A stretch of 32,991 nucleotides of DNA from assembly GCA_023150835.1 (NCBI GenBank), contig JAKLKB010000005.1, positions 62,001 through 94,991 on the forward strand, written 5' to 3'. The notes under the pieces were generated by a model. That model made no database searches and had not been told where the DNA came from. It saw only the letters and a program-made list of their open reading frames with translations. The translations under genes were made by a program, and so were the position numbers. The stretch comes from Myxococcota bacterium. GTDB taxonomy: Bacteria; Myxococcota_C; UBA6777. Positions 1,760 through 13,105 of the stretch are shown here, piece by piece; position 1 is the stretch's first letter; every line of letters starts with the position of its first letter.

Positions 1760-3043
1760 TCAAACAGCCCTTGATGATCGCGGTCGGATCGCTTGGATCA
1801 CCAACATCTCATCGCCCTCTTCCCACGGCGTTTTGTGCAGATCACAATAACAACCGCCGATCACAAACCCCACTTCCTCCAACATCGACACCAACTGCGC
1901 TTGGTGCAGATAACGCTGTGGGATCGCATACACTTGTTCGCTCTCCACACCGTCTTCCGTTGTTCGGTACAGATAATAAGCATCCCAACGCTGTTCGCTC
2001 GGCTCCAAACAACGACCCTCCAAGATATCAACGCATCGCTCGCCCTCATACAACGAAGCCAACGGCTCGAACGTCACCAGCTTTCCGTCCGCCAAAAAAA
2101 AACTCCCTCCCCGCGACCGCTCCCGAACCTCTTCATCCTCCGAGACTTCGGCACTTTCATCGACACCAACGTCCGATGCTTCGGCCCTTTCAGCATCGTT
2201 GTGTTCGCCCGATACTTCGGCCTCTTCAGCGGATGTCTGTTCCTTCGATGCTTCGGCTTCTTCAGCGGATGCTTGTTCCTTCGATACTTCGGCTTCTTCA
2301 GCAGATGTCTGTTCCTTCGATGCTTCGGCTTCTTCAGCAGATGTCTGTTCCTTCGATGCTTCGGCTTCTTCAGCGGATGTCTGTTCCTTCGATGCTTCGG
2401 CTTCTTCAGCGGATGTCTGTTCCTTCGATGCTTCGGCTTCTTCAGCGGATGTCTGTTCCTTCGATACTTCGGCTTCTTCGGACGAAGCGTCCAGATCGAC
2501 TTGATACAGATCGAGCCAAAGTTCGCCCCCTGCGACGAGGTGGTCAAAAGCCCGTTGCAAACAGGCGCGTTGTGCGGACTCGCTGAGTAGCACGTACAGG
2601 CCATTGTAGGGGATCAGCACCCGATCAAAACGTTGTGGAAGGGAAAATTCGGACATATCGGCAAGGATCAAAGAGGCGCGATCGCGGATCGCGTCGGGAG
2701 CGGAAGAGAGGCGTTGTTGGAGGGCGGCGATCATGTCGGGATGGAGGTCAAGACCTGTCACGCGATGCCCTGCCTCTAAAAGCGGTCGCATCACGCGACC
2801 CCACCCACAACCCAACTCCAAGACGGTCTCGGCCCCCCGACACACCCGCCGATAAAACGCGATATCTCCTGCGTTTCCTCGGTGCGTGATCTGATACAGC
2901 GAAACATCATACAGATCGGACGAACAGACATCGTGTGGATCGGGCAAAGAGACATCGTGCGGATCGGGCGAAGAGACATCGTGCGGATCGGGCGAAGAGA
3001 CATCGTGCGGATCGGGCGAAGAGACACCGTGTGGATCGGACAA
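1760..3043 (-). CDS. Class I SAM-dependent methyltransferase carrying two tandem-repeat tracts
   Basis: Motif I VLELGCGWGRV, VTGLDLHPDM, ADMSEFSLPQRFDRVLIPYN, HLVAGGELWLD; TTG start 5 nt after GGAGG. Confidence 0.85.
   Translation of the reverse strand: MSDPHGVSSPDPHDVSSPDPHDVSSPDPHDVSLPDPHDVCSSDLYDVSLYQITHRGNAGDIAFYRRVCRGAETVLELGCGWGRVMRPLLEAGHRVTGLDLHPDMIAALQQRLSSAPDAIRDRASLILADMSEFSLPQRFDRVLIPYNGLYVLLSESAQRACLQRAFDHLVAGGELWLDLYQVDLDASSEEAEVSKEQTSAEEAEASKEQTSAEEAEASKEQTSAEEAEASKEQTSAEEAEASKEQTSAEEAEVSKEQASAEEAEASKEQTSAEEAEVSGEHNDAERAEASDVGVDESAEVSEDEEVRERSRGGSFFLADGKLVTFEPLASLYEGERCVDILEGRCLEPSEQRWDAYYLYRTTEDGVESEQVYAIPQRYLHQAQLVSMLEEVGFVIGGCYCDLHKTPWEEGDEMLVIQAIRPRSSRAV
2211..2479. repeat. 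36-bp in-frame tandem repeat, ~7.5 copies (encodes EEAEASKEQTSA)
   Basis: Unit GATGCTTCGGCTTCTTCAGCGGATGTCTGTTCCTTC starting at 2211, 2247, 2283 ... 2463. Confidence 0.95.
2901..3040. repeat. 24-bp in-frame tandem repeat, ~6 copies (encodes SSPDPHDV)
   Basis: Unit GAGACATCGTGCGGATCGGGCGAA at 2901, 2925, 2949, 2973, 2997 and 3021, with outer copies degenerate. Confidence 0.95.
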
Positions 3044-3082: not shown

Positions 3083-4693
3083 CTAGGAGCTCTGTTGGCG
3101 AGCGGCGGCGGCGGGTGGAAAAGCGTTGTCGTCTTTTGCGTCGCGTGTCTTGGGTGAAGGCAAGGCCACGAGGTTGTTTTTGGGAGGGAGTGCCTTGGTT
3201 TCGTCCAGTTGATAGTCTCGAACGATGCAAAACTCGGTGGCTTCGGCAGAAAGCATCACACCCGGGACACCTGCGCCGGGATGGGTTCCTGCACCGACCA
3301 TATACAACCCTTCGACATCTTCGCTTTTGTTATGTGGCCGCAGATAGGCCGTTTGCGAAAGTTTGGGCTCAACACCAAAGGCATTGCCGTAGTGCGAGTT
3401 GAGCGTATGCTGAAAGTCGTTGGGTGTAAAGACTTCGCAAACGTCGAGGTGTTCGCGCAATCCTTCAAGCCCCCACTCTTCAAGGAAACGCAGCACCTTG
3501 TCGGTGAATCCGTCCTTGATCGCGTCCCAATCGAGACCCGAAGTATTGTTGGCGACGGGAATCAACACATACATACTTTCGCAACCTTCGGGAGCCATCT
3601 CCGCATCGGTGCGCGTCGGGACGTGCAGGTACATACTAAAATCATCGGGCAAGATCTTGTTCTTAAAGATATCACGGATTAGTTCACGATACCGCTCCGA
3701 CAAGATCAACGTGTGGTGCTTGAGAGACGGATACTGCTTGCGAACACCAAGGTACAGCAAAAAGCAGCTCATGGTGTACGAGGTCTTGGCCACTTTCTTG
3801 TCGGTCCATTTCTTCCGATTCTCCGAAGCGATCAGCTTGGAGTAGGTGTGTCCAAAGTCTGCGTTGCTCACCACCAGATCTGCGGGGAAAAAAGTATCAT
3901 TGGCTTCAACGCCCACCGCACGGCCTTGTTCGACACGGATCTTTTGGACTTCGCACGAGGTATGTACTTCGCCACCAAGCTCCAAAAAGACCTTCTCTAG
4001 GGCCTTGACGAGGCTGTACATCCCGCCCTTCGTGAACCACACCCCAAGCTCTCGTTCCAAATAAGGGATCATCAAGTACACCGACGGAGCGCTGAATGGG
4101 TTGCCACCGATAAACAACGGGTGAAAGCTAAACATAAAGCGGTGACGGAAGTCCTGAAAATAACGCTGGACGTAGTTGTGGACAGGTCGATAGGCTTCCA
4201 GTTTGATCGCACGCGGAACAAACGCAAGCATCGAGCGGATCGTATCAAAGGGCCGTGCGCCGAGTTGATCCGTGATCACCGCTTCGTAGATCGGCTTGAG
4301 CTTTTCCATGAAAGCATCATAGCGCTCCGCGTCTTTGGCATTAAACTTCCGCATCTCCGCTTTCATCTTCTCGCTGTCACCGCTGTAATCAAGAAAAGTC
4401 TTGTCGTGGTAATAGATCCGATAATACGGATCGAGCGGCAGCAGTTCGAGATAATCCGATAGTTTCTTGCCTGCGGCTTCAAAGATCGATTCGATGATCG
4501 GTGGTGCGGTGATCAAGCTCGGTCCCATATCGAAGGTGTATCCGTCTTTTTTGAGCTGGTACGCTCGGCCCCCGACCATCTCCCGCTTCTCAAGCAGCTT
4601 GACTTGGATCCCTCGCGCCTGCAATCGCACCGCCAACGACAAACCACCAAATCCACTTCCGATCACCACTGCACTTTTCGGCTTTTTCTGCAT
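3083..4693 (-). CDS. crtI: Phytoene desaturase (CrtI family)
   Basis: FAD motif VVIGSGFGGLSLA, GGRAY..GYTFDMGPSLIT, KGGM, and C-terminal GLYMVGAGTHPGAGVPGV. Start placed at ATG 4693 (MQKKPK). Confidence 0.95.
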   Translation of the reverse strand: MQKKPKSAVVIGSGFGGLSLAVRLQARGIQVKLLEKREMVGGRAYQLKKDGYTFDMGPSLITAPPIIESIFEAAGKKLSDYLELLPLDPYYRIYYHDKTFLDYSGDSEKMKAEMRKFNAKDAERYDAFMEKLKPIYEAVITDQLGARPFDTIRSMLAFVPRAIKLEAYRPVHNYVQRYFQDFRHRFMFSFHPLFIGGNPFSAPSVYLMIPYLERELGVWFTKGGMYSLVKALEKVFLELGGEVHTSCEVQKIRVEQGRAVGVEANDTFFPADLVVSNADFGHTYSKLIASENRKKWTDKKVAKTSYTMSCFLLYLGVRKQYPSLKHHTLILSERYRELIRDIFKNKILPDDFSMYLHVPTRTDAEMAPEGCESMYVLIPVANNTSGLDWDAIKDGFTDKVLRFLEEWGLEGLREHLDVCEVFTPNDFQHTLNSHYGNAFGVEPKLSQTAYLRPHNKSEDVEGLYMVGAGTHPGAGVPGVMLSAEATEFCIVRDYQLDETKALPPKNNLVALPSPKTRDAKDDNAFPPAAAARQQSS

Positions 4694-5047
4694 GACACGC
4701 TTCACTTTCTTCTCTTGCAACAACGCAGCCCAAACGATCCGCCTCAAACACACAAAAATCATGCTTTTTGGACAGCATCAGGGCATTGCGATATCTCGCG
4801 TCGATCCCCCTACACGTTCGGGGGTGTACGCTTGCGTTTTGTGTTCCCTACAGATTCTGCTCACGCTCAAAGGATTCGCGAAAAAATCCCAAAACATCGA
4901 TCTCATAGGAGTGAGAGGGTGTCTGGATCAGCGATATCTGAACGCGATATCTCCGCGTAATGTATGAATGAGGGGGGGGCAAAGACGCTCTCTCGTGCAA
5001 ACAGCGTGCGGCATGGAACACCAAAACCTCGCAGCCTCCGAAGATCG

Positions 5048-5210
5048 AGGGCAGGCACGGGGGCCTGCCCCTACGAAACACCGTGTGATTTCCAACACGT
5101 AGGGGCAACCCCCTGTGGTTGCCCTGTTGTTGGGGTTAGTTCAAAACAGATGGCGATGAAGAGGTCACCGACGCAACAGATCGAGGGCAGGCACACCTGT
5201 CTGCCCCTAC
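5048..5210. repeat. Cluster of three GTAG-type REP palindromes
   Basis: GTAGGGGCAGGCCCCCGTGCCTGCCCT (minus, 5048-5074), GTAGGGGCAACCCCCTGTGGTTGCCCT (plus, 5099-5125) and GTAGGGGCAGACAGGTGTGCCTGCCCT (minus, 5184-5210). Confidence 0.8.
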
Positions 5211-5310
5211 ATATCGGCGCACACAACGGGCGGATATCGTATGAGAGGGTCCCCCACGACGCTTCGCTGTGGAGCGAGGAAGGGTAAGGGGCATCGCGAG
5301 AAAGCGCATA

Positions 5311-5421
5311 GATGCGATTTTGGATGAGTTGCATACACAAAGGAGGGTTTTTGGATGGGGGGTTTGTTTGGGAGGATGCGATTTTGGACGGGCGTCATGT
5401 ACGGGGATGCGATTTTGGATG
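5311..5421. repeat. Four spaced direct repeats, core GATGCGATTTTGGAYG, period 31-33 bp, with non-identical spacers
   Basis: Cores at 5311, ~5343 (degenerate), 5375 and 5406. Confidence 0.75.
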
Positions 5422-5446
5422 TATGGCGAGAGTCGGGTCTGCCTCT

Positions 5447-8400
5447 TCACCCATTCGACTCGGCGTGGCTGTGCAGCACAAACGGCTGCGTGGAAGGTCG
5501 TTTCCATCGCAAACGCTCCTGACGCAAAGACCGCAAAGCTCGCCACGCCAGCCATATCTTTTGCTTCTTGGTTGTGTAGACGCGCTCGCTGAGGTTGTCG
5601 AATCCGCGTTCAACAAGCCGATCTTGGATCCCCTTGTACACGGTCGCAGCGACCGCCACAGGGCGCTGGAAAAATTCGGGCAAACACGGGATCGCCACAA
5701 AAGCTTCTTGGTAAGCCCGATCGGCGATCTCGGCGATCTCTTGCAAACAGGCCCGATACCCCGAAGTGATCGGCATCTTTCCCTCAACCATCTCCGCGAT
5801 CTGCGCTTCCTCCACCCCATGCTTCGCCATCACCGACGCAGGCAGATACAACCGACCCATCCGCCAATCTTCGCTCACATCGCGCAAGATATTGGTCAAC
5901 TGCATCGCATGACCCAACAAAGACGCTCGCCGCAACACTTCGCGATCATGCACCCCAAACAACTCCGTCAACCAACACCCCACCACCGAGGCCACACGAT
6001 ACGTATACAGCTGCAACGCCTCCATATCCCGATAACGACGCGGCGTGATATCCATCCGCACCCCTTCGATCAACGCATCCACATACGCAAACGGCACTCC
6101 CGCCCCCGCCATCTCACCCATCACAGACCCCAACAACGGATGCTCCGACAACTTCCCCTCATAGGCCGCTCGCGCCAAGCCTTTCCAAGCATCCAACAAC
6201 CGATGCAACGCCGTCTCCGAGAGCCCTTCTCGACCATCCACCAGATCGTCTGTGTAACGGCAAAAAGCATACACGCCCGCCACTTGTTCCATCTCACGTT
6301 TCGGAAAAAACTGCGATGCAAAACGAAACGACTTGCTGTGTTGCGCAAAATAATCGAGATGCGAACCCGATCCAACCAGATCACGCGCTTCCAACAATCG
6401 CTTGATCTCCGCATCTTCGGCTTTTGTCACCGCGTTCTCATACGCCACTTCATCCTCGATCACCTGATGCGCACGCTCTTGCCAACGCGAAACCACCGCG
6501 CACAACACAGGTTGCTCCCCCGCAAGCTCCCGCAAGTCCGACAAAAATGCTGTATAGATCTCGTCAAGATGTGACAGCGCCCGTTCCATCGCAGCCTTTT
6601 GCTCTACCCGACGAAACAACGCACCACACAAGCCAGCCCCGACCTTCTCTCCTTGTGGCACTGCAAAGAACGCTCGCGGCCAAGTCCACTTTCCTTGAAG
6701 AAAGTCTTGAAAGGCAGGTTTCCCCGTCTGAGCGCGTGGACAATAATCCAGCAGATCATCCAACATCTGATACAAACAACCCAAACGCCGACCCAACGCA
6801 TAATACGCCATCGCCTGCGGATCTTCCGACAACATCGGCTGGATCGCCATCGCAAAACCAAACAACTCGCCCGACTTGCCACCGACGATCTCTTCGTACG
6901 CTTCCCGCGTCAGTTCTTTTCCAACAGCACGCGCTTGACGCAACTCACCTGCCACCGTTCGCTCGACCACCCGCGCAAACAGCGTCATCAACGGCAACGA
7001 ACCCGTCTGCGCGATCACCCGATACGCCGCCGTCAAAAAATGATCGCCCATCACCAACGCCGCTCCTACGCCGCGCTCTGCATACAACGTCGGTTGCCCC
7101 CGTCGTTCGGCGGCTTCGTCGATGATATCGTCATGCAACAGCGAAGCCTCGTGAACCATCTGCACAGCCAGCGCTCCCTGCCAAAACCGCGCATCCTCCG
7201 CCCCCAACGAAGCGGCGATCCCGTATCCCACCAACGGGCGGATCATCTGCCCTTCCAACGCGATCTTCGGCAAACCTTCGGCTTCCAGTCTTGCGGATTG
7301 GCCTTGCAAACCCAACAAGACCGCTGACTGCGCAAGCTCCAACGTTCCCTCACGCTCTCGCCTCAACAAACCTTCGCTCTGTTGTGTGTCCACAGAAACC
7401 GACGTAGCATCCGCCGTATTCGAAGCATCAGTGGACAGAACCGCTGCGGCAGACACCGATGGCGTAGACTCTTCGGTGCGCTTCCATACTCCGCTGGATG
7501 CAGCCCCCAAGATGCCCGACGATACCGACCCACCGTTGGACGAGTCCGACGAAGCACCCGCCGAACGCCACATCACGCTCTCCATAGAAAACGCTGGCTT
7601 CCCTCCGCTCGGTGGCTGCGCTTCTTGTGCGCGCCAACGCGCCCACAACATCCCCAAAACACACACCTGATACGCAAACAAGTTCAGCGCCACCGCGCCC
7701 CACAAACCACCGATCGCCACCATCCCCAGCGACAAACCTACATTCAACCCATAAAACCACGCCATCCACCGCACGGGCAACGCACGCACCCACGCATCGA
7801 CACGCAACCACACCAACGCTCCCATCACCGCAAGGCTCGTCACATACCAACCAAAGAAGTTGATCAGCGGCATCCCGTAGTAATAATGGCCTTTTTCCGC
7901 CCAGATCCAATAACGGTTGAGGTAGCTCATCGCTGGATCAAGACTCAAGTCCCACATACTCAACAGCAGCGCACCCAGCATCACCCGCCCATACCAACGC
8001 TGCTCCTGCGGAAAGGTCCACAGCGCCAGCACATACGCAGGCACCGCCATAAAAAACCAACTCACCGGGATCACCAGCGGCACATGGCCCAAAAGCTTCC
8101 AACCCAAAAGCTCCGAGTAATGGTACGATCCGAACGGAAAGCCCAACGTCGTCCCCGCATACTCGCTCAAAAAACTCAGCGCATACACCGCAACAAACGC
8201 CGACCACCAACGCCAACCCACAAAACGCACCAAGACCACCACCAACACCACACCCGCAAGCCACGATTGGCCTTCACCAAACAACCGAAATGAGATCCCG
8301 TAAAACCACGTCAAATGCGCCTGCCAACCGATCGGAAGCATCGACAGCCAGTGCGGATGACGACCAAACGTCGCATAACCCACCAACGCGACAACGCAAA

Positions 8401-8473
8401 ACGCAGCCAAACCCAACAAACTCCAATCCTCTACGCCAAAACGCGAGGCATATCGCTTCCATTGTGCGTTCAC
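5447..8473 (-). CDS. crtB: Triple fusion: CruF/DUF422-type carotenoid hydratase + trans-isoprenyl diphosphate synthase + phytoene synthase
   Basis: CruF motifs EYAGTTLGFPFGSYHY, WDLSLDPAM, YYGMPLINFFGWY; prenyltransferase FARM HDDIIDEAAERRGQPT and SARM YQMLDDLLD; CrtB motifs SKSFRFAS, YAFCRYTDDLVD, AMQLTNILRDVSEDWRMGRLYLP. Start GTG 8473 follows AGGAGG and overlaps the regulator's stop (GTGA). Confidence 0.92.
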   Translation of the reverse strand: MNAQWKRYASRFGVEDWSLLGLAAFCVVALVGYATFGRHPHWLSMLPIGWQAHLTWFYGISFRLFGEGQSWLAGVVLVVVLVRFVGWRWWSAFVAVYALSFLSEYAGTTLGFPFGSYHYSELLGWKLLGHVPLVIPVSWFFMAVPAYVLALWTFPQEQRWYGRVMLGALLLSMWDLSLDPAMSYLNRYWIWAEKGHYYYGMPLINFFGWYVTSLAVMGALVWLRVDAWVRALPVRWMAWFYGLNVGLSLGMVAIGGLWGAVALNLFAYQVCVLGMLWARWRAQEAQPPSGGKPAFSMESVMWRSAGASSDSSNGGSVSSGILGAASSGVWKRTEESTPSVSAAAVLSTDASNTADATSVSVDTQQSEGLLRREREGTLELAQSAVLLGLQGQSARLEAEGLPKIALEGQMIRPLVGYGIAASLGAEDARFWQGALAVQMVHEASLLHDDIIDEAAERRGQPTLYAERGVGAALVMGDHFLTAAYRVIAQTGSLPLMTLFARVVERTVAGELRQARAVGKELTREAYEEIVGGKSGELFGFAMAIQPMLSEDPQAMAYYALGRRLGCLYQMLDDLLDYCPRAQTGKPAFQDFLQGKWTWPRAFFAVPQGEKVGAGLCGALFRRVEQKAAMERALSHLDEIYTAFLSDLRELAGEQPVLCAVVSRWQERAHQVIEDEVAYENAVTKAEDAEIKRLLEARDLVGSGSHLDYFAQHSKSFRFASQFFPKREMEQVAGVYAFCRYTDDLVDGREGLSETALHRLLDAWKGLARAAYEGKLSEHPLLGSVMGEMAGAGVPFAYVDALIEGVRMDITPRRYRDMEALQLYTYRVASVVGCWLTELFGVHDREVLRRASLLGHAMQLTNILRDVSEDWRMGRLYLPASVMAKHGVEEAQIAEMVEGKMPITSGYRACLQEIAEIADRAYQEAFVAIPCLPEFFQRPVAVAATVYKGIQDRLVERGFDNLSERVYTTKKQKIWLAWRALRSLRQERLRWKRPSTQPFVLHSHAESNG

Positions 8474-9435
8474 TGGATCGCCTCCTGCCCGACTTGAAAC
8501 CCTGAAAAAGTCTTCTTGATCCACTCACGAAACGTCTTCGTTGCCGTAAAGACACACAAACTCTCAAACGGAGCCTCTTCGTCCACCGACGCCCCCTCCA
8601 ACGCGCTCCCACCCAACACCAGATGATAAGGCTGCGCAGGATCGTAAAACTCCGACAACACTCGCACACAGCGCAGCGCATCCGCCCTCTTGCGCGGCGG
8701 CACAAACGACACGCACACCATCTGCGCATCATACTTTTTCTGCGCCTTCGCGTACGCCTCCAGCGGCACATTCGCCCCCAAGTAGTATACCCGCCAACCC
8801 AGATGCTCCAACACGATCCGCGTACACAGCGCTCCGATCTGATGCTGCTCTCCCTCCGAACATCCCACCACCGCCCGTCTCGCCGATGTATCCGAGATCT
8901 GCAACGATGCCTCTCGCAGCTTCCTCAAACTGTGCAACGCATCCACAATCAACTGCGTGTACAAATGCTCTTGCCCCACATCGATCTCGCCCGACTCCCA
9001 CAAATTCCCCACATGCACCATCAACGCACGCACGCTCTGATCCATGATATCTTCAACAGGCACTTCCGCCCGCTGCTGCATATACAACCACAATGGCTCC
9101 AAAAGCTGCGGATGCGATCCCGAGATCCACTTCATCGCAAGCTGATTGATCAGCTCAAAATCCCCGCGTTCTCGGCTCGCTTCGATCCCCCACCACACCA
9201 TCGACTCGAACGGCTCGAACATCTGCAACGCCAACGGTATCGACCGCTCCCGCGCAAACCGCAACAAATCTTCCAACAAGATCCGCCGATGACCACCCCG
9301 CGTCTTTGTCGACACCATCTCTTCGTTGTTGCACCAACGCTTGATCGTCGACTCATGCACTTCCAACAGGTCCGCTGCTCGCGTTGTCGTCAACAAGATC
9401 TCGCTCAAATCGTTCTCTCGTGTATCCACATCCAT
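8470..9435 (-). CDS. carH: CarH/LitR-like cobalamin-binding transcriptional regulator (MerR/excisionase-type HTH + B12 domain)
   Basis: HTH LLTTTRAADLLEVHESTIKRW..KTRGGHRRI; W-x9-EH (WESGEIDVGQEH); ExHxxG (EQHQIG); YLGANVP; LGG. Start uncertain: ATG 9435 chosen, ORF extends to 9546. Confidence 0.85.
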   Translation of the reverse strand: MDVDTRENDLSEILLTTTRAADLLEVHESTIKRWCNNEEMVSTKTRGGHRRILLEDLLRFARERSIPLALQMFEPFESMVWWGIEASRERGDFELINQLAMKWISGSHPQLLEPLWLYMQQRAEVPVEDIMDQSVRALMVHVGNLWESGEIDVGQEHLYTQLIVDALHSLRKLREASLQISDTSARRAVVGCSEGEQHQIGALCTRIVLEHLGWRVYYLGANVPLEAYAKAQKKYDAQMVCVSFVPPRKRADALRCVRVLSEFYDPAQPYHLVLGGSALEGASVDEEAPFESLCVFTATKTFREWIKKTFSGFQVGQEAIQ

Positions 9436-9685
9436 CTCTGTTCGTTCTCCCAAAACGCTCATCGAACCTTCTCCGCTCATCCGCTTCTTACGAGACATGG
9501 CCTGTTTCTTTTGCTGCACCTGCCCATCGCTTCGCAGGCCCCTCACAAAAAACGACCAGCTTCGTCGAATAAACGATTTTCAGGCTCATAGGATGCTGAT
9601 CCACAAAAAAACGATGCTGTCTTTGTTTTCCCCAGTACAAATTTTAGGAGAGGACTTATGCGGTTGGACTTCGTTTCGTGGGGTG

Positions 9686-9919
9686 TCACTTCTTGTTTAT
9701 ACCTAAAAACGTCTCCCGTATGGGGAGTCCAGACCGGAGAGGTGCCCCCCCCTCGCCTCTTCGGTCTGTTCTTTCTTCTACAGTCGGCCAGCCCAACGCC
9801 GCTGCCCGCTCAAATAGCGGAGGTGTGGACGGCCTCTCGTAAACAAACACCTCTTCCATCGGTTCCAGCGTCTGTTGTTTCTTGCGGTGCATACGCAACA
9901 ACAGCACGATCCGCTCCAT
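9686..9919 (-). CDS. Small hypothetical protein (77 aa)
   Basis: ATG at 9919 in an ORF co-oriented with and upstream of the CarH-like gene; no recognisable motif. Confidence 0.3.
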   Translation of the reverse strand: MERIVLLLRMHRKKQQTLEPMEEVFVYERPSTPPLFERAAALGWPTVEERTDRRGEGGAPLRSGLPIRETFLGINKK

Positions 9920-10114
9920 TCGATCGATACGTCTCACCGCTTTGACTCCTTCCCGCTCCACAAAAACCACCGAATATCCGGCAAAAACAAACCCCACTTA
10001 CCAACGCTCAACAAGATGCTTTATGCCCGTGTGTTCTGCCAGATCGCGACACGCGGCCGATCGCCCTAAAAAGCCCAACCAAACAAGCCTATTTTGCGGG
10101 ACTTTTTAAACTCT

Positions 10115-10143
10115 TTGCGTTTGTAAGCGGCATGGGCTACGAT
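10115..10143 (+). promoter_or_regulatory. Sigma70-type promoter of the ATPase operon
   Basis: TTGCGT-17 nt-TACGAT. It overlaps ATG 10142, so ATG 10172 (after GGGAGGAGG) is the preferred start. Confidence 0.55.
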
Positions 10144-10171
10144 GGCGGCCTTCCACAGGGAGGAGGCTGCG

Positions 10172-11500
10172 ATGTTGTTTGTGGGTCGCCGAGGACCAGT
10201 TGCAGAATTAAGCGCTTGGCTTCAAGAAGAAACGGTCTCCAAAGAACCCGTACGGCTGGGGAGTATCTCGGGAGCGGGAGGGATCGGAAAGAGCTTTTTG
10301 CTCGAACATTGTTTGCGCAACACGCCGCATTTTTCGTTGGAAGATCAGCTTGTTGTCCGTTTTGAAGGGCAGCAACAACCGCGCAGCCTTGTGCAGCTTT
10401 TTGCGGTGGAATGGTTGGCCCAGTTGGATGCGCGCCATCCGAGCCTACCCAAGGGCAGTTTTGTTCGTCTGCGTGAATTGTCCGACCAATACAAGCGGAT
10501 CATGGAGCAGATGGGATCTGTGGCGTTGCGTTCGGGAGAAGAGGGCTTGCGCGAGGTCTTGCAGGCGCTGCTGCGATTTGGGCTTTGCCCAGAACGTGCG
10601 TTGCCGTTGCGTCCGTTTGAACTGGCCTTTGCTTCGGTCGATGACACAACGCTTGAAGAAGCCATACGCTGGCTACGAGAACAGCGAGGTTTGCGCACCG
10701 AGTGGCAATGGTGGTCTCGCATCGGCGTTTGGAAAGGAAAGGGCCTACGAAACCGATTGCGCCGCGATCTTCATGCGACGTTAAGCGATGTACTGGCTTA
10801 TGACCTTGACACTTTGTTCCGACACAAACACCGCTCTGTCCGACAGTTGCTGTTGATCTTTGACGATTACGAAAGTCTCTCGCCGATCGTTGGGGATTTT
10901 TTGGTGGATGATCTACTCCCACGAATCAAATCCGCGCATTATCCGAGCTTATTGTTGTTTTTAGGCCGCGACTCCTTGCTTGCCACACATCCCGAATGGG
11001 GGCAACATTATCGACCGTTGCTTGGCACACGTCAGATCGAGCTACGGCCCTTTACGCGCCCTGAAGCCGAAGAATTCATCCGCCGCAAGGGAATCTTACA
11101 AACCGAAGCGATCGATCGGGTGTGGGAACGCACACAAGGTTTCCCCTTTTTGTTGGACACAGAGTGCGACGACGAAAAAACGGGCGGAACTTCTGCGTTG
11201 GGACTCAAGCTGTTTTATCAACGCTTGACACGTTGGATGACGCCGATCCAACGTCGTTGGTTGTTGCCGCTATGTTTTCTTGATGAGATCAACCTTGAAA
11301 CCGTGTCCTCGATCTTGCCCGATACATCGGCTGAAACCGTACTGGCTTGGTTCAAAGAAGAAGCCTCCTTGCGCGATCCACACGCAGCACGCTGGCAAGT
11401 GATCCCCTTTGTTCGACAGCGTTTGCTGCAATACATCCAAAATGACTCCCCACAACAATACGCCCGCTGGACAACACTCGCCCGTAGGAGTTTTCCGTGA
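10172..11500 (+). CDS. STAND/AAA_16-like P-loop NTPase without an obvious sensor or effector domain
   Basis: N-terminal FVGR, Walker A GAGGIGKS, Walker B LLLIFDDYE, LLFLGR, LRPFTRPEAEEF and TQGFPFLL (GxP). Confidence 0.85.
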   Translation: MLFVGRRGPVAELSAWLQEETVSKEPVRLGSISGAGGIGKSFLLEHCLRNTPHFSLEDQLVVRFEGQQQPRSLVQLFAVEWLAQLDARHPSLPKGSFVRLRELSDQYKRIMEQMGSVALRSGEEGLREVLQALLRFGLCPERALPLRPFELAFASVDDTTLEEAIRWLREQRGLRTEWQWWSRIGVWKGKGLRNRLRRDLHATLSDVLAYDLDTLFRHKHRSVRQLLLIFDDYESLSPIVGDFLVDDLLPRIKSAHYPSLLLFLGRDSLLATHPEWGQHYRPLLGTRQIELRPFTRPEAEEFIRRKGILQTEAIDRVWERTQGFPFLLDTECDDEKTGGTSALGLKLFYQRLTRWMTPIQRRWLLPLCFLDEINLETVSSILPDTSAETVLAWFKEEASLRDPHAARWQVIPFVRQRLLQYIQNDSPQQYARWTTLARRSFP

Positions 11501-11754
11501 CTGATTCATTGACTTGGACGCTGCTTCCGCCCTTGCCTGCTTCGCCTCCGACGCTCGGCTTGATCGGTCTTGGCTCACGATGGCAAACCACACAAGCCGA
11601 ACTCCAACGATGCGCCTCTTCCGCTGCTCTTGCGCTTGCTACGCCGACCGCTCGGACACCTTGGTCGGTCGCGCTCTGGCAACATCCCATCCCCTCGCTA
11701 CCCAAAACACCCAAGACTTGGCTCTCACTGCCTTCTCAAAGGAAATTCTTATGA
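11497..11754 (+). CDS. Small hypothetical protein (85 aa), translationally coupled on both sides
   Basis: GTG start overlaps the ATPase stop (GTGA 11497-11500); its TGA overlaps the next ATG (ATGA 11751-11754). Confidence 0.45.
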   Translation: MTDSLTWTLLPPLPASPPTLGLIGLGSRWQTTQAELQRCASSAALALATPTARTPWSVALWQHPIPSLPKTPKTWLSLPSQRKFL

Positions 11755-12353
11755 CCACACCACTCCAAGAAACCATGCAGATCGTCATGCAAGCACAAGC
11801 GATCCAACACCAATTCCACAAAAACCTCGCGGACCTTTTTCGCTTGCTCGTCGCAGAACTCGAAGAAAGTGATCTCGCTTACACTCCGCTGCTTGAGCGC
11901 GGTGCGCTGTGGACTTCCTCGATATCTCCGCTCCTTCGCGAAGCCAAGTCTTGGCAGATCAAGCACTTTGCCATGCCTCTCGTCCCCCAAGACTCAGACC
12001 ACCCCTTTCTTTTGCTACATGTCTCGACAGACGAACAATTCTCCTCTGCTCCCGAACTTTGGCTTGGCCTTATCCGCAACCTCGATAATTTTGGTGTAGA
12101 AAAATATCCCTACCTCGATTCTCTAGAGTATATCTTTCGCGATTACTTTGGCCCTGAAGAAACATGGACCGAACCACGAACTTGGTACGAAGACTCGATC
12201 GAGGATGAGCGTATTCAAGCCGATCTTGCATTTTACTGTATCCCTTTGTCGGCTCTTGAGGACGTCTTCGCTGCCCGAAAAGAGATCCGTGATCCCATAC
12301 AGCGATACATCACAGAAGATGATTCATCCCATCATCGGAGTAAGTCCCGTTGA
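11751..12353 (+). CDS. Hypothetical acidic protein (200 aa)
   Basis: ATG 11751 with AAGGA RBS; globular-looking sequence; stop overlaps the next TTG (TTGA). Confidence 0.75.
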   Translation: MTTPLQETMQIVMQAQAIQHQFHKNLADLFRLLVAELEESDLAYTPLLERGALWTSSISPLLREAKSWQIKHFAMPLVPQDSDHPFLLLHVSTDEQFSSAPELWLGLIRNLDNFGVEKYPYLDSLEYIFRDYFGPEETWTEPRTWYEDSIEDERIQADLAFYCIPLSALEDVFAARKEIRDPIQRYITEDDSSHHRSKSR

Positions 12354-13105
12354 ACGAAGAGAAAAAGACCCAGATCGAAAGCCATCCTCTGCTTGACGAA
12401 AAAAAAGCGAGCGAGCCGCACGTCCCCATCCGCCTTTCTTTTCACACGCTCAACAACCACCTCGCCGCGTGCCGAGGCTATGCCGAACTGCTTGCACGTC
12501 TTCCTGCTCTTCCGCCCGAAGCGACCGAATACAGCAAGCAGTTATCGCGTGCGCTTGGTGACGCGCTGGTAAGTGCGATGGCGCTCGAACAACAAGCCAA
12601 AGAACGCGCTTCCGAAGTACCCGTTGCGGACGTTGGCACAAAGACTCCCCCCAAAACAGAGATCGGCGCTCGTGCTTCTTCGGATGAAAACCAGATCGCT
12701 TGCGAGACGCTTTTAATTGTGGAAGACGACGAAGCTTTTCGTGAGATGTTGACCAACTATCTTCAACGCCGTGGCTACACGATCCTCGCCGCCCAAAACG
12801 GCGAAGAAGGGATCACGAGGATCCAACAACATCTCGAAGATATCGATGCGGTGTTGCTGGATCGGCACATGCCGCGCTGTGATGGACTCGAATTCTTAGA
12901 AGAGATGCGCCGATATGCCCCTCGCTTGCGCGTCGTGATGCTCAGCGGCAACGACCTTGAACACGAGCGCACGATCTTAGAACGATACGGTGTCTTTTCT
13001 CATCTCAAAAAACCCTTTTCTCTTCGGGTGTTATCCCACACACTCCGTCAACTCTTCGCCGCCCCTCCCCCTTCCCCTCTGCTTTCCCCCTCAAACGACG
13101 AATGA
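12350..13105 (+). CDS. Response-regulator receiver protein with an N-terminal HisKA-like helix and no HATPase domain
   Basis: H-box-like SFHTLNNHLAACRGYAELL; receiver motifs LLIVEDD, VLLDRHMP, VMLSG and LKKPF. Confidence 0.8.
   Translation: MNEEKKTQIESHPLLDEKKASEPHVPIRLSFHTLNNHLAACRGYAELLARLPALPPEATEYSKQLSRALGDALVSAMALEQQAKERASEVPVADVGTKTPPKTEIGARASSDENQIACETLLIVEDDEAFREMLTNYLQRRGYTILAAQNGEEGITRIQQHLEDIDAVLLDRHMPRCDGLEFLEEMRRYAPRLRVVMLSGNDLEHERTILERYGVFSHLKKPFSLRVLSHTLRQLFAAPPPSPLLSPSNDE

Follow-up and report, generated by a model that had tools for sequence, protein, structure and literature searches.

The fusion gene and its domains

What lies at the locus? We analysed 32,991 nucleotides of DNA (the window, by which we mean this whole stretch) from an uncultured sludge bacterium of the Myxococcota (GenBank assembly GCA_023150835.1, contig JAKLKB010000005.1, positions 62,001 to 94,991 of the forward strand). 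The host assembly is a metagenome bin of 7.56 Mb in 239 contigs, 93% complete. On the minus strand of the window, a single gene joins a CruF-type carotenoid hydratase domain, a trans-prenyl diphosphate synthase domain and a phytoene synthase (PSY) domain. Its frame is uninterrupted over 5447..8524 in the list of open reading frames, which corresponds to 1025 aa from a GTG. The GTG at 8473 is the likelier start, giving 1008 aa: it shares a GTGA overlap with the stop codon (TGA) of the gene upstream, AGGAGG lies 7 nt upstream of it, and a relative with 95% identity (P0002) begins at the same residue. Amino acid positions of Pfam matches follow the 1025-aa form; those of the linker and of the structure model follow the 1008-aa form. 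The parts of the gene are:

5447..8473, minus strand: fusion gene, 1008 codons plus stop; alternative GTG start at 8524, giving 1025 aa
7619..8434, minus strand: CruF (Caroten_synth) membrane domain, about 8 predicted helices; Pfam match 7676-8260
7397..7612, minus strand: Ser/Ala/Gly-rich linker, aa 288-359, predicted to be disordered (predicted local distance difference test, pLDDT, 26-41)
6389..7387, minus strand: trans-prenyl diphosphate synthase domain, with a long helix (aa 363-398) before it; Pfam match 6668-7258
7118-7132, 7097-7108 and 6746-6760, minus strand: prenyl synthase motifs from a motif search, namely the first Asp-rich motif (FARM, DDIID), RRG and the second Asp-rich motif (SARM, DDLLD)
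6689-6727 and 7235-7252, minus strand: further prenyl synthase motifs from the motif search, GK..GK and the first conserved motif (GQMIRP)
5474..6376, minus strand: phytoene synthase (SQS_PSY) domain; Pfam match 5567-6346, 1.6e-62
6236-6250 and 5867-5881, minus strand: PSY Asp-rich motifs DDLVD and DVSED, from the motif search

A preliminary description, made from the letters alone, had claimed one continuous open reading frame of about 1008 aa with these three domains in this order, and the frame at 5447-8473 bears it out. All three domains lie far over their Pfam cut-offs: Caroten_synth (PF04240) at aa 89-283 with 142.9 bits (cut-off 25; 1.7e-41), polyprenyl_synt (PF00348) at aa 423-619 with 144.5 bits (cut-off 27; 4.2e-42) and SQS_PSY (PF00494) at aa 727-986 with 212 bits (cut-off 26). 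The FARM and SARM and both Asp-rich motifs of the PSY were found where they had been placed. The proposed domain borders agree with ours to within about 40 nt, apart from the start of the prenyl synthase domain, which had been put at about 7330 and which we place at 7387 with its leading helix included, or at 7258 by Pfam.

How are the domains arranged in space? An AlphaFold2 model built on a 50-sequence alignment (mean pLDDT 85.5; predicted TM-score, pTM, 0.60) has helices over aa 14-285, mostly at pLDDT 80-97, and its disorder is limited to the passage between CruF and the prenyl synthase. The passage from the prenyl synthase to the PSY (about aa 690-710) is ordered, at pLDDT of about 72. 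The composition of the linker (23 Ser, 16 Ala and 13 Gly in 117 residues) and the predicted disorder over aa 288-359 both match the Ser/Ala/Gly linker described earlier. The model thus predicts a membrane domain, a 72-residue flexible tether and a compact soluble unit of two enzymes, and the earlier idea that CruF tethers two soluble enzymes to the membrane fits its roughly eight helices, disordered linker and two ordered soluble domains. Hydropathy and helix count indicate about eight membrane spans, with Arg and Lys on the N-terminal tail and on the stretch after the last span; this placement suggests that the tether and the soluble enzymes would lie in the cytoplasm. A complex prediction of CruF (aa 1-290) with PSY (aa 696-1000), on a 56-row alignment, scored 0.00 in both runs and has no weight either way.

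Could the single frame be an assembly or frameshift artefact that merges two or three separate genes? The source genome is a 239-contig bin, and one contig from another study (run X9, depth 4.99) lacks a base at 7892, within the CruF part; a base difference in a single contig below depth 5 is a possible error, as the contig comparison warns. We placed Logan contigs from four runs of other studies on 5300-8700. Run X4 covers 5392-7361 with one 1970-nt contig (2 mismatches, 0 gaps) and 7332-7624 with another of 293 nt; in run X8, contigs of 946 nt (6244-7189) and 511 nt (7198-7708) have 0 differences to the window; and in run X9, contigs of 494 and 313 nt span 6335-6828 and 7332-7644. Both junctions are therefore bridged without an indel in three independent data sets, and neither the linker nor the prenyl-PSY junction holds a stop or frameshift in these contigs. 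In a genome of the same genus (G001), the same frame is open over 1005 aa at 91% identity and is ended by the contig edge. Eleven other 90%-identity clusters, 40-95% identical to the window protein, keep the three Pfam domains in one protein. We consider the chance of an artefact negligible. Contigs from an RNA library (X15) cover parts of 5311-7201 and no CruF part, and carry no weight for or against transcription. The linker differs in length between homologues, and run X4 also carries a variant with a diverged 200-nt linker segment of unchanged length, which is expected of an unconstrained linker.

Relatives and origin of the three-domain form

How widespread is this architecture? The GTDB phylum of the host comprises six species genomes in one family. 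The three-domain gene is present in G001, of the same genus. Elsewhere in the family, G004 has a two-domain prenyl-PSY gene (653 aa) beside two crtI-family genes, and in G005 cruF (331 aa) and crtB (367 aa) are two neighbouring, separate genes that follow the order of the fusion; their cluster also contains crtI, a lycopene cyclase-oxidoreductase fusion, a GT2 glycosyltransferase, a photolyase and a Svf1_C lipocalin-like gene. A 776-aa protein of G005 (L106:10813-13143), with two Lycopene_cyc repeats and an FAD (flavin adenine dinucleotide) amine-oxidase domain, is probably of the known lycopene cyclase-CrtU type, by analogy with the "lycopene cyclase fused to CrtU" listed for myxobacteria in a figure legend of PMC9304148.

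Beyond the family, a search with the whole protein returned 11 three-domain proteins and 109 of the polyprenyl_synt + SQS_PSY type among the 120 matches listed; the only organism names among the 109 are Longimicrobium and Gemmatimonadales metagenome-assembled genomes (MAGs). The CruF part, searched against proteins of 563-1794 aa, gave 54 matches: 9 three-domain, 43 CruF + SQS_PSY (named sources Rhodothermaceae, Rhodothermales, Rhodothermus bifroesti and Bacteroidota) and 2 CruF + acyltransferase (Ktedonobacteraceae). In a set of 1.84 billion 50%-identity representatives, five of the best 150 matches look three-domain (P0005, P0007, P0010, P0011 and the candidate P0167), as judged by length (891-980 aa) and a prenyl part starting near residue 290-306. 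A contig search with the fusion protein listed 80 loci, 79 of them ordinary prenyl synthases and one a two-domain form from a "Deltaproteobacteria bacterium" MAG. With 11 other 90%-identity clusters, and about five representatives at 50% identity among the best 150 matches, the three-domain form is rare. Compared with P0005, identity is 73.7, 71.9 and 70.1% in CruF, prenyl synthase and PSY, respectively, and the linker diverges. The near-equal conservation suggests that all three domains are under selection.

Was the prenyl synthase inserted into a CruF-PSY protein, or was CruF joined to a prenyl-PSY protein? In a tree of 166 PSY domains (FastTree, LG+gamma, midpoint-rooted), all 43 CruF-PSY proteins form one clade (support 0.997) with the window outside it, and 12/12 three-domain proteins lie within the prenyl-PSY radiation. 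They occupy five places there: P0001-5 (support 1.0), P0006-9 (0.995), and P0010, P0011 and P0013 singly. Support is low at the deep nodes (0.1-0.6). The crtB of G005, a stand-alone gene, nests with the two-domain protein of G004 (0.979). A CruF tree (58 sequences) joins the G005 cruF with the CruF parts of 11 of the 12 three-domain proteins, with weak support (0.304). Our reading of these trees is that cruF was joined to an existing prenyl-PSY gene, not that a prenyl synthase was inserted into a Rhodothermus-type fusion. Repeated gain of CruF may explain the five places, and so may repeated loss; the tree is compatible with both.

Two-domain relatives of both kinds help to place the protein. 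In Rhodothermus marinus, cruF and crtB share a single open frame, and their operon also includes cruD, crtI and a MerR-type regulator, according to excerpts of Kristjansdottir et al. (2020, PMC7414004). The window resembles this system in its N-terminal CruF and C-terminal phytoene synthase in one frame, in a regulator upstream and crtI downstream, and in the fusion of nonconsecutive steps; the last point, made in the preliminary description, holds because CruF acts after CrtI. Identity to a Rhodothermaceae member is 48% in CruF and 41% in PSY. The Rhodothermus-type proteins lack the middle prenyl synthase and are about 580-620 aa long, or about 800-850 aa where an unrelated extension follows at the C-terminus; their CruF and PSY adjoin directly, whereas about 330 residues of prenyl synthase separate the two in the window. 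Their PSY domains form a clade of their own (43/43, 0.997), whereas that of the window lies inside the prenyl-PSY radiation, and the regulator is MerR-like in R. marinus (same excerpts) and of the HTH_17 type in the window. We rejected the idea that the 800-850-aa CruF-PSY proteins hide a decayed prenyl domain, as BLASTP places CruF and PSY side by side with about 200 extra residues at the C-terminus. In many Rhodothermales and Bacteroidota proteins of about 820 aa, such as P0123 and P0129, this extension comprises one more transmembrane helix plus a helical domain (about 200 aa) that has no Pfam match.

The two-domain polyprenyl_synt + SQS_PSY proteins (about 600-700 aa) have the prenyl-PSY unit and the motifs of the window, at 44-51% identity over about 57-63% of the query, without the CruF membrane domain and the long linker. 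They are annotated only as "phytoene synthase" or "squalene/phytoene synthase family protein". Fungal CrtYB is alike in having a polytopic late-step membrane enzyme N-terminal to phytoene synthase, and unlike in being eukaryotic, in having a lycopene cyclase instead of Caroten_synth and in lacking a prenyl synthase domain. Full-text literature searches, mostly at abstract level, returned no account of a natural prenyl synthase-PSY fusion or of a three-domain protein. The earlier statement that these enzymes are normally separate genes therefore needs qualifying, given the published CruF-CrtB fusion (excerpts of PMC7414004), a type common in the Rhodothermales and Bacteroidota (43 clusters), and the abundance of prenyl-PSY fusions (109 of 120 matches listed). 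Its companion, that the architecture had not been described, seems right for the full combination and too broad for its CruF-CrtB pair, which those excerpts already report. The three-domain protein is apparently an undescribed, rare extension of the published CruF-CrtB fusion, built on a common prenyl-PSY fusion.

Proposed activities of the three domains

What would the three domains do? We read the gene as encoding one polypeptide with three putative activities, a membrane-tethered geranylgeranyl diphosphate (GGPP) synthase, a phytoene synthase and a carotenoid 1,2-hydratase, and give this reading a probability of about 0.7. We infer the catalytic activities and the GGPP product, as we do a cytoplasmic C-terminus, channelling and light control. 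Under strict patterns, 120 of 121 prenyl-PSY proteins have FARM and RRG, all 121 have SARM..GK, and each PSY motif occurs in 117; we count these near-invariant motifs, and the about equal conservation of the three domains, for this reading. The fusion is the sole SQS_PSY and the sole Caroten_synth match found in the 93%-complete host genome, and the adjoining crtI is the only CrtI match there above the cut-off. We count this pairing for a role in carotenoid synthesis, and likewise the presence of homologous cruF and crtB genes in the typical carotenoid cluster of G005. The cruF-crtB fusion of R. marinus, which must be whole for carotenoids to be made (excerpts of PMC7414004), serves as a precedent.

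Several observations pull the other way. One is the base missing at 7892; another is that the RNA-library contigs do not establish transcription. None of the three domains reaches an NCBIfam equivalog cut-off. The best NCBIfam model for the PSY part is HpnD (203.5 bits, below its cut-off of 278.6). For the middle domain, the prenyl equivalogs are missed throughout (CrtE 40 against 460 bits, GGPP_syn 68 against 500, octaprenyl 90 against 412), and its best solved and NCBIfam relatives are long-chain (C40-C45) synthases. The residues aligned with V73, A76, S77, L128 and F132 of the Thermotoga maritima octaprenyl diphosphate synthase (OPPS) are identical, as we read the alignment, and the Lys of its first motif (K41, GKMLR) is Gln in the window (GQMIRP).

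Does the middle domain make GGPP? The preliminary description implied as much; this is an assumption, drawn from the fused partner and not from the sequence, for the nearest solved relatives are the OPPSs of T. maritima (104.9 bits, 5.3e-29) and Escherichia coli (93.6 bits) among PDB sequence matches, and Foldseek pairs the domain with long-chain prenyl synthases (TMt 0.6-0.69). Alternatively, the domain would not be a GGPP synthase at all and would make a longer chain, or serve as a dimerising or substrate-holding scaffold, with GGPP supplied by another prenyl synthase. Besides the ranking of octaprenyl and solanesyl diphosphate synthases as best PDB and NCBIfam matches, a longer product is a possibility because the tunnel residues match those of the T. 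maritima enzyme. Positions -5 and -4 before the FARM are Ala and Ser in the window, and 119 of 121 family members have small residues (A, S) there; this rule is not discriminating here, as the same positions are small in all three prenyl synthases of the host.

The Lys of the first conserved prenyl synthase motif binds isopentenyl diphosphate (IPP). Its replacement by Gln counts for the longer-chain or scaffold alternative. The corresponding K41 of T. maritima OPPS has been studied by mutation (PDB entry 1wkz). Across the 121 fusions the position is Q in 65, K in 46, R in 6 and H in 2, and was not found in 2; with K and Q forms both common, we rejected the Lys-to-Gln change as a general sign of a dead domain. 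Two further polyprenyl synthases in the host genome, one GHMP-fused and one stand-alone (366 aa), could supply GGPP, and the related crtB of G005 works without a fused prenyl domain. Catalysis is argued for by the near-invariance of FARM, RRG, SARM and GK in the 121 fusions. Matches to PDB proteins deposited as GGPP synthases (86.8 and 82.5 bits) are not far below the 104.9 bits of the best one, and a long-chain product has no obvious rationale beside an enzyme that uses C20 units. On balance we hold a GGPP synthase to be the better account of the middle domain and a longer product or a scaffold to be unlikely. The GHMP-fused frame (L002:274-2481, on contig C113 of the host genome, G000) has 735 aa, with a GHMP-kinase domain, weak mevalonate/phosphomevalonate kinase matches and a complete polyprenyl synthase, and is a second isoprenoid-pathway fusion of this genome.

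Does the SQS_PSY domain work on C20 or C15 units? If it condensed C15 units to dehydrosqualene or presqualene diphosphate, it would feed a C30 carotenoid or a squalene/sterol route. Its top NCBIfam model is HpnD, the CrtB equivalogs are missed (165.1 against 500, 127.2 against 480 and 113.7 against 550 bits), and its closest solved structures are C30 synthases (PDB sequence matches 5iys, 1.8e-27, and 8is6 CrtM, 2e-26; Foldseek against CrtM-type structures, TMt 0.87-0.89). However, the 12 PDB sequence matches offer no solved C40 phytoene synthase for comparison. The HpnD-first ranking does not discriminate either, since a Rhodothermus CruF-CrtB and the crtB of the canonical C40 cluster in G005 rank alike; after these control CrtBs we rejected it as evidence of a squalene role. 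At the chain-length position, the C30 synthases 5iys and 8is6 carry Phe and 3ae0 an engineered Ala; this residue is Ser in the window and Ala in the family consensus. We take this Phe to be F26 of Staphylococcus aureus CrtM, where a small residue presumably marks a C40 pocket, as in the directed-evolution literature, and the Ser of the window would fit such a pocket.

The genomes of the genus give the C15 alternative some footing. An oxidosqualene-cyclase-like gene occurs in 3/3 of them and a separate SQS_PSY was found in 0/3 (completeness 93, 86 and 64%), and G005 has an SQS_PSY gene 1.3 kb from its oxidosqualene cyclase. The cyclase-like genes of the genus score about 712-719 bits to TIGR03463, below the cut-off of 851; that of the host (L116:8599-10647, contig C232; 719 bits) stands alone, without isoprenoid neighbours. 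Because the genomes are incomplete, an absent squalene synthase is weak evidence: it may be an assembly gap, and there is a small probability of the fusion serving a C30 route as well. The neighbouring CrtI-family desaturase (574 bits) also speaks for C40 synthesis, and only C40 psi-ends would give CruF and a lycopene cyclase a sensible role. A domain that condenses C15 units is, in our judgement, very unlikely, and we retain the phytoene synthase.

The CruF domain is most likely a carotenoid 1,2-hydratase acting on the psi-end. The window protein is itself one of the 56 rows of an alignment of three-domain and CruF-PSY proteins (A2), and so it carries every invariant CruF column, among them W174, D175, L178, D179, P180, M182, S183, Y188, W189, W191, M201, P202, N205, G208, W209 and T212. 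It misses the NCBIfam cut-offs for NF045693 (gamma-carotene 1'-hydroxylase; 104.4 against 400 bits) and TIGR03460 (archaeal; 100.5 against 154.7), and Foldseek gave the CruF part no solved-structure match among the matches listed. Excerpts of PMC13704108 treat CruF as an established 1,2-hydratase that accepts gamma-carotene and lycopene. The stand-alone proteins they name, from Deinococcus, Picosynechococcus sp. PCC 7002 and Chloroflexus aurantiacus, belong to the same Pfam family as the window domain, and in E. coli the Chloroflexus enzyme hydrates both gamma-carotene and lycopene, the same reaction that we propose. Unlike these separate proteins of about 300 aa, the CruF of the window is a fused domain, with 104 bits to NF045693 where the cut-off is 400.

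Locus context and a proposed pathway

Which genes and elements surround the fusion? The neighbouring features of the window are:

8470..9546, minus strand: CarH-like B12-binding regulator, 358 aa (Pfam HTH_17, B12-binding_2 and B12-binding)
3083..4762, minus strand: crtI, phytoene desaturase family (TIGR02734, 574 bits, cut-off 238), 684 nt downstream of the fusion
1760..3043, minus strand: S-adenosylmethionine-dependent methyltransferase, 427 aa (Methyltransf_25), 40 nt after crtI
5311-5421: three exact copies of a 14-nt word (TCCAAAATCGCATC, minus strand) just after the fusion stop
5042-5217: two copies of a 33-nt GC-rich hairpin-forming element, 85% alike and 136 nt apart, plus a third related arm
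10142-13105, plus strand, divergent from the regulator: an AAA_16/NACHT-like ATPase (452 aa), an unnamed 279-aa protein and a response-regulator protein

The stop of the regulator gene overlaps the start of the fusion (GTGA), and by this overlap the regulator is predicted to be translationally coupled to it. Described CarH proteins have a MerR-type DNA-binding domain; that of the window regulator is HTH_17 (excisionase-type), not MerR-type, and the protein misses the NCBIfam CarH equivalog (53.8 against 400 bits). It has a Wx9EH motif (WESGEIDVGQEH) at aa 183 and a B12-binding motif, EQHQIG...SFV...GG, at aa 233 (pattern ExHx2G...SxV...GG). Wx9EH with D/ExHx2G...SxT/V...GG is given in excerpts of PMC9304148 as the mark of adenosylcobalamin (AdoCbl)-dependent CarH photoreceptors. 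The orthologue in G001, 94% identical and in the same position, has one in-frame TAG.

The methyltransferase may belong to the carotenoid operon and could modify the carotenoid hydroxyl. Its best NCBIfam match is a daptide-type methyltransferase of ribosomally synthesised and post-translationally modified peptides (111 bits, cut-off 175), and its C-terminal half has no Pfam match. In G001 the piece that matches the C-terminal end of the fusion is followed by the orthologue, about 1.9 kb further downstream on that contig and strand; elsewhere in the family the N-terminal half alone was matched, at other loci. The 33-nt hairpin elements lie in the 684-nt spacer between the fusion and crtI and could be terminators, repetitive extragenic palindromic (REP)-like elements or operator sites. 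With up to 2 mismatches allowed, the 14-nt word occurs 4 times in the window, where 0.48 occurrences would be expected. Over 5311-5421 the contigs of all four placed runs break or lose one base at 5357, and the 131-nt stretch 5300-5430 has higher depth in other runs and is single-copy in the host genome. Rfam gave no match at E up to 0.1 within 4600-10300, and a sigma-70 promoter scan found 1 site against 2.9 expected.

At a second carotenoid-like locus of the host (L113:8121-13343, contig C234), a 270-aa CrtYcd-type lycopene cyclase is encoded together with a Rieske oxygenase, a UbiE-type methyltransferase and an amine-oxidase-family protein of 557 aa; this locus may serve ring modification or aromatisation. 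Because such a cyclase is encoded on another contig, the pathway need not end at acyclic carotenoids. The 1-hydroxy acyclic carotenoids proposed earlier are thus possible and not the only outcome; hydroxylated monocyclic products are at least as likely.

How might the polypeptide work? The N-terminal, polytopic CruF domain would sit in the cytoplasmic membrane, with the linker of about 72 residues tethering a rigid, soluble pair of prenyl synthase and PSY. The prenyl synthase domain would lengthen a short allylic diphosphate with IPP to GGPP, and the PSY domain beside it would make phytoene from two GGPP at the membrane surface. Desaturation of phytoene to lycopene would then fall to CrtI, a separate protein encoded downstream. 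One end might optionally be cyclised by the CrtYcd enzyme from the other contig, after which CruF would hydrate the 1,2 double bond of a psi-end, giving a 1-hydroxy carotenoid. The coupled CarH-like AdoCbl photoreceptor would probably put the fusion under light induction.

What would such a protein mean? Enzyme fusion is a standard trick of carotenoid metabolic engineering, and GGPP is a branch-point metabolite. If our reading is true, a natural membrane-tethered chain of three activities would be a ready-made engineering part and a test case for the channelling of GGPP. The prenyl-PSY fusions that dominate the top database matches appear uncharacterised, and their long-chain-like prenyl domain raises the question of a GGPP product for them as well.

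Why would a first-step enzyme be tied to a late-step one? PSY is tied to CruF in two PSY lineages, the Rhodothermales CruF-CrtB clade and the prenyl-PSY fusions to which CruF was added. In R. marinus, removal of the cruF part alone left no detectable carotenoids, and for fungal CrtYB deletions in the membrane cyclase domain are cited as having left no active phytoene synthase (both in excerpts of PMC7414004). We tentatively suggest, as a possibility that we rate well below even odds, that PSY may need a membrane partner and that CruF is this partner, a dock for unloading phytoene into the bilayer first and a hydratase second. The window protein would then probably dimerise through its prenyl synthase domain, turn C5 or C15 units into phytoene at the membrane and hydrate the carotenoid later. 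The joining of CruF and PSY in two lineages, together with the dead R. marinus CrtB without its CruF half, suggests a functional dependence between the first and a late step of carotenoid synthesis that current pathway schemes do not explain.

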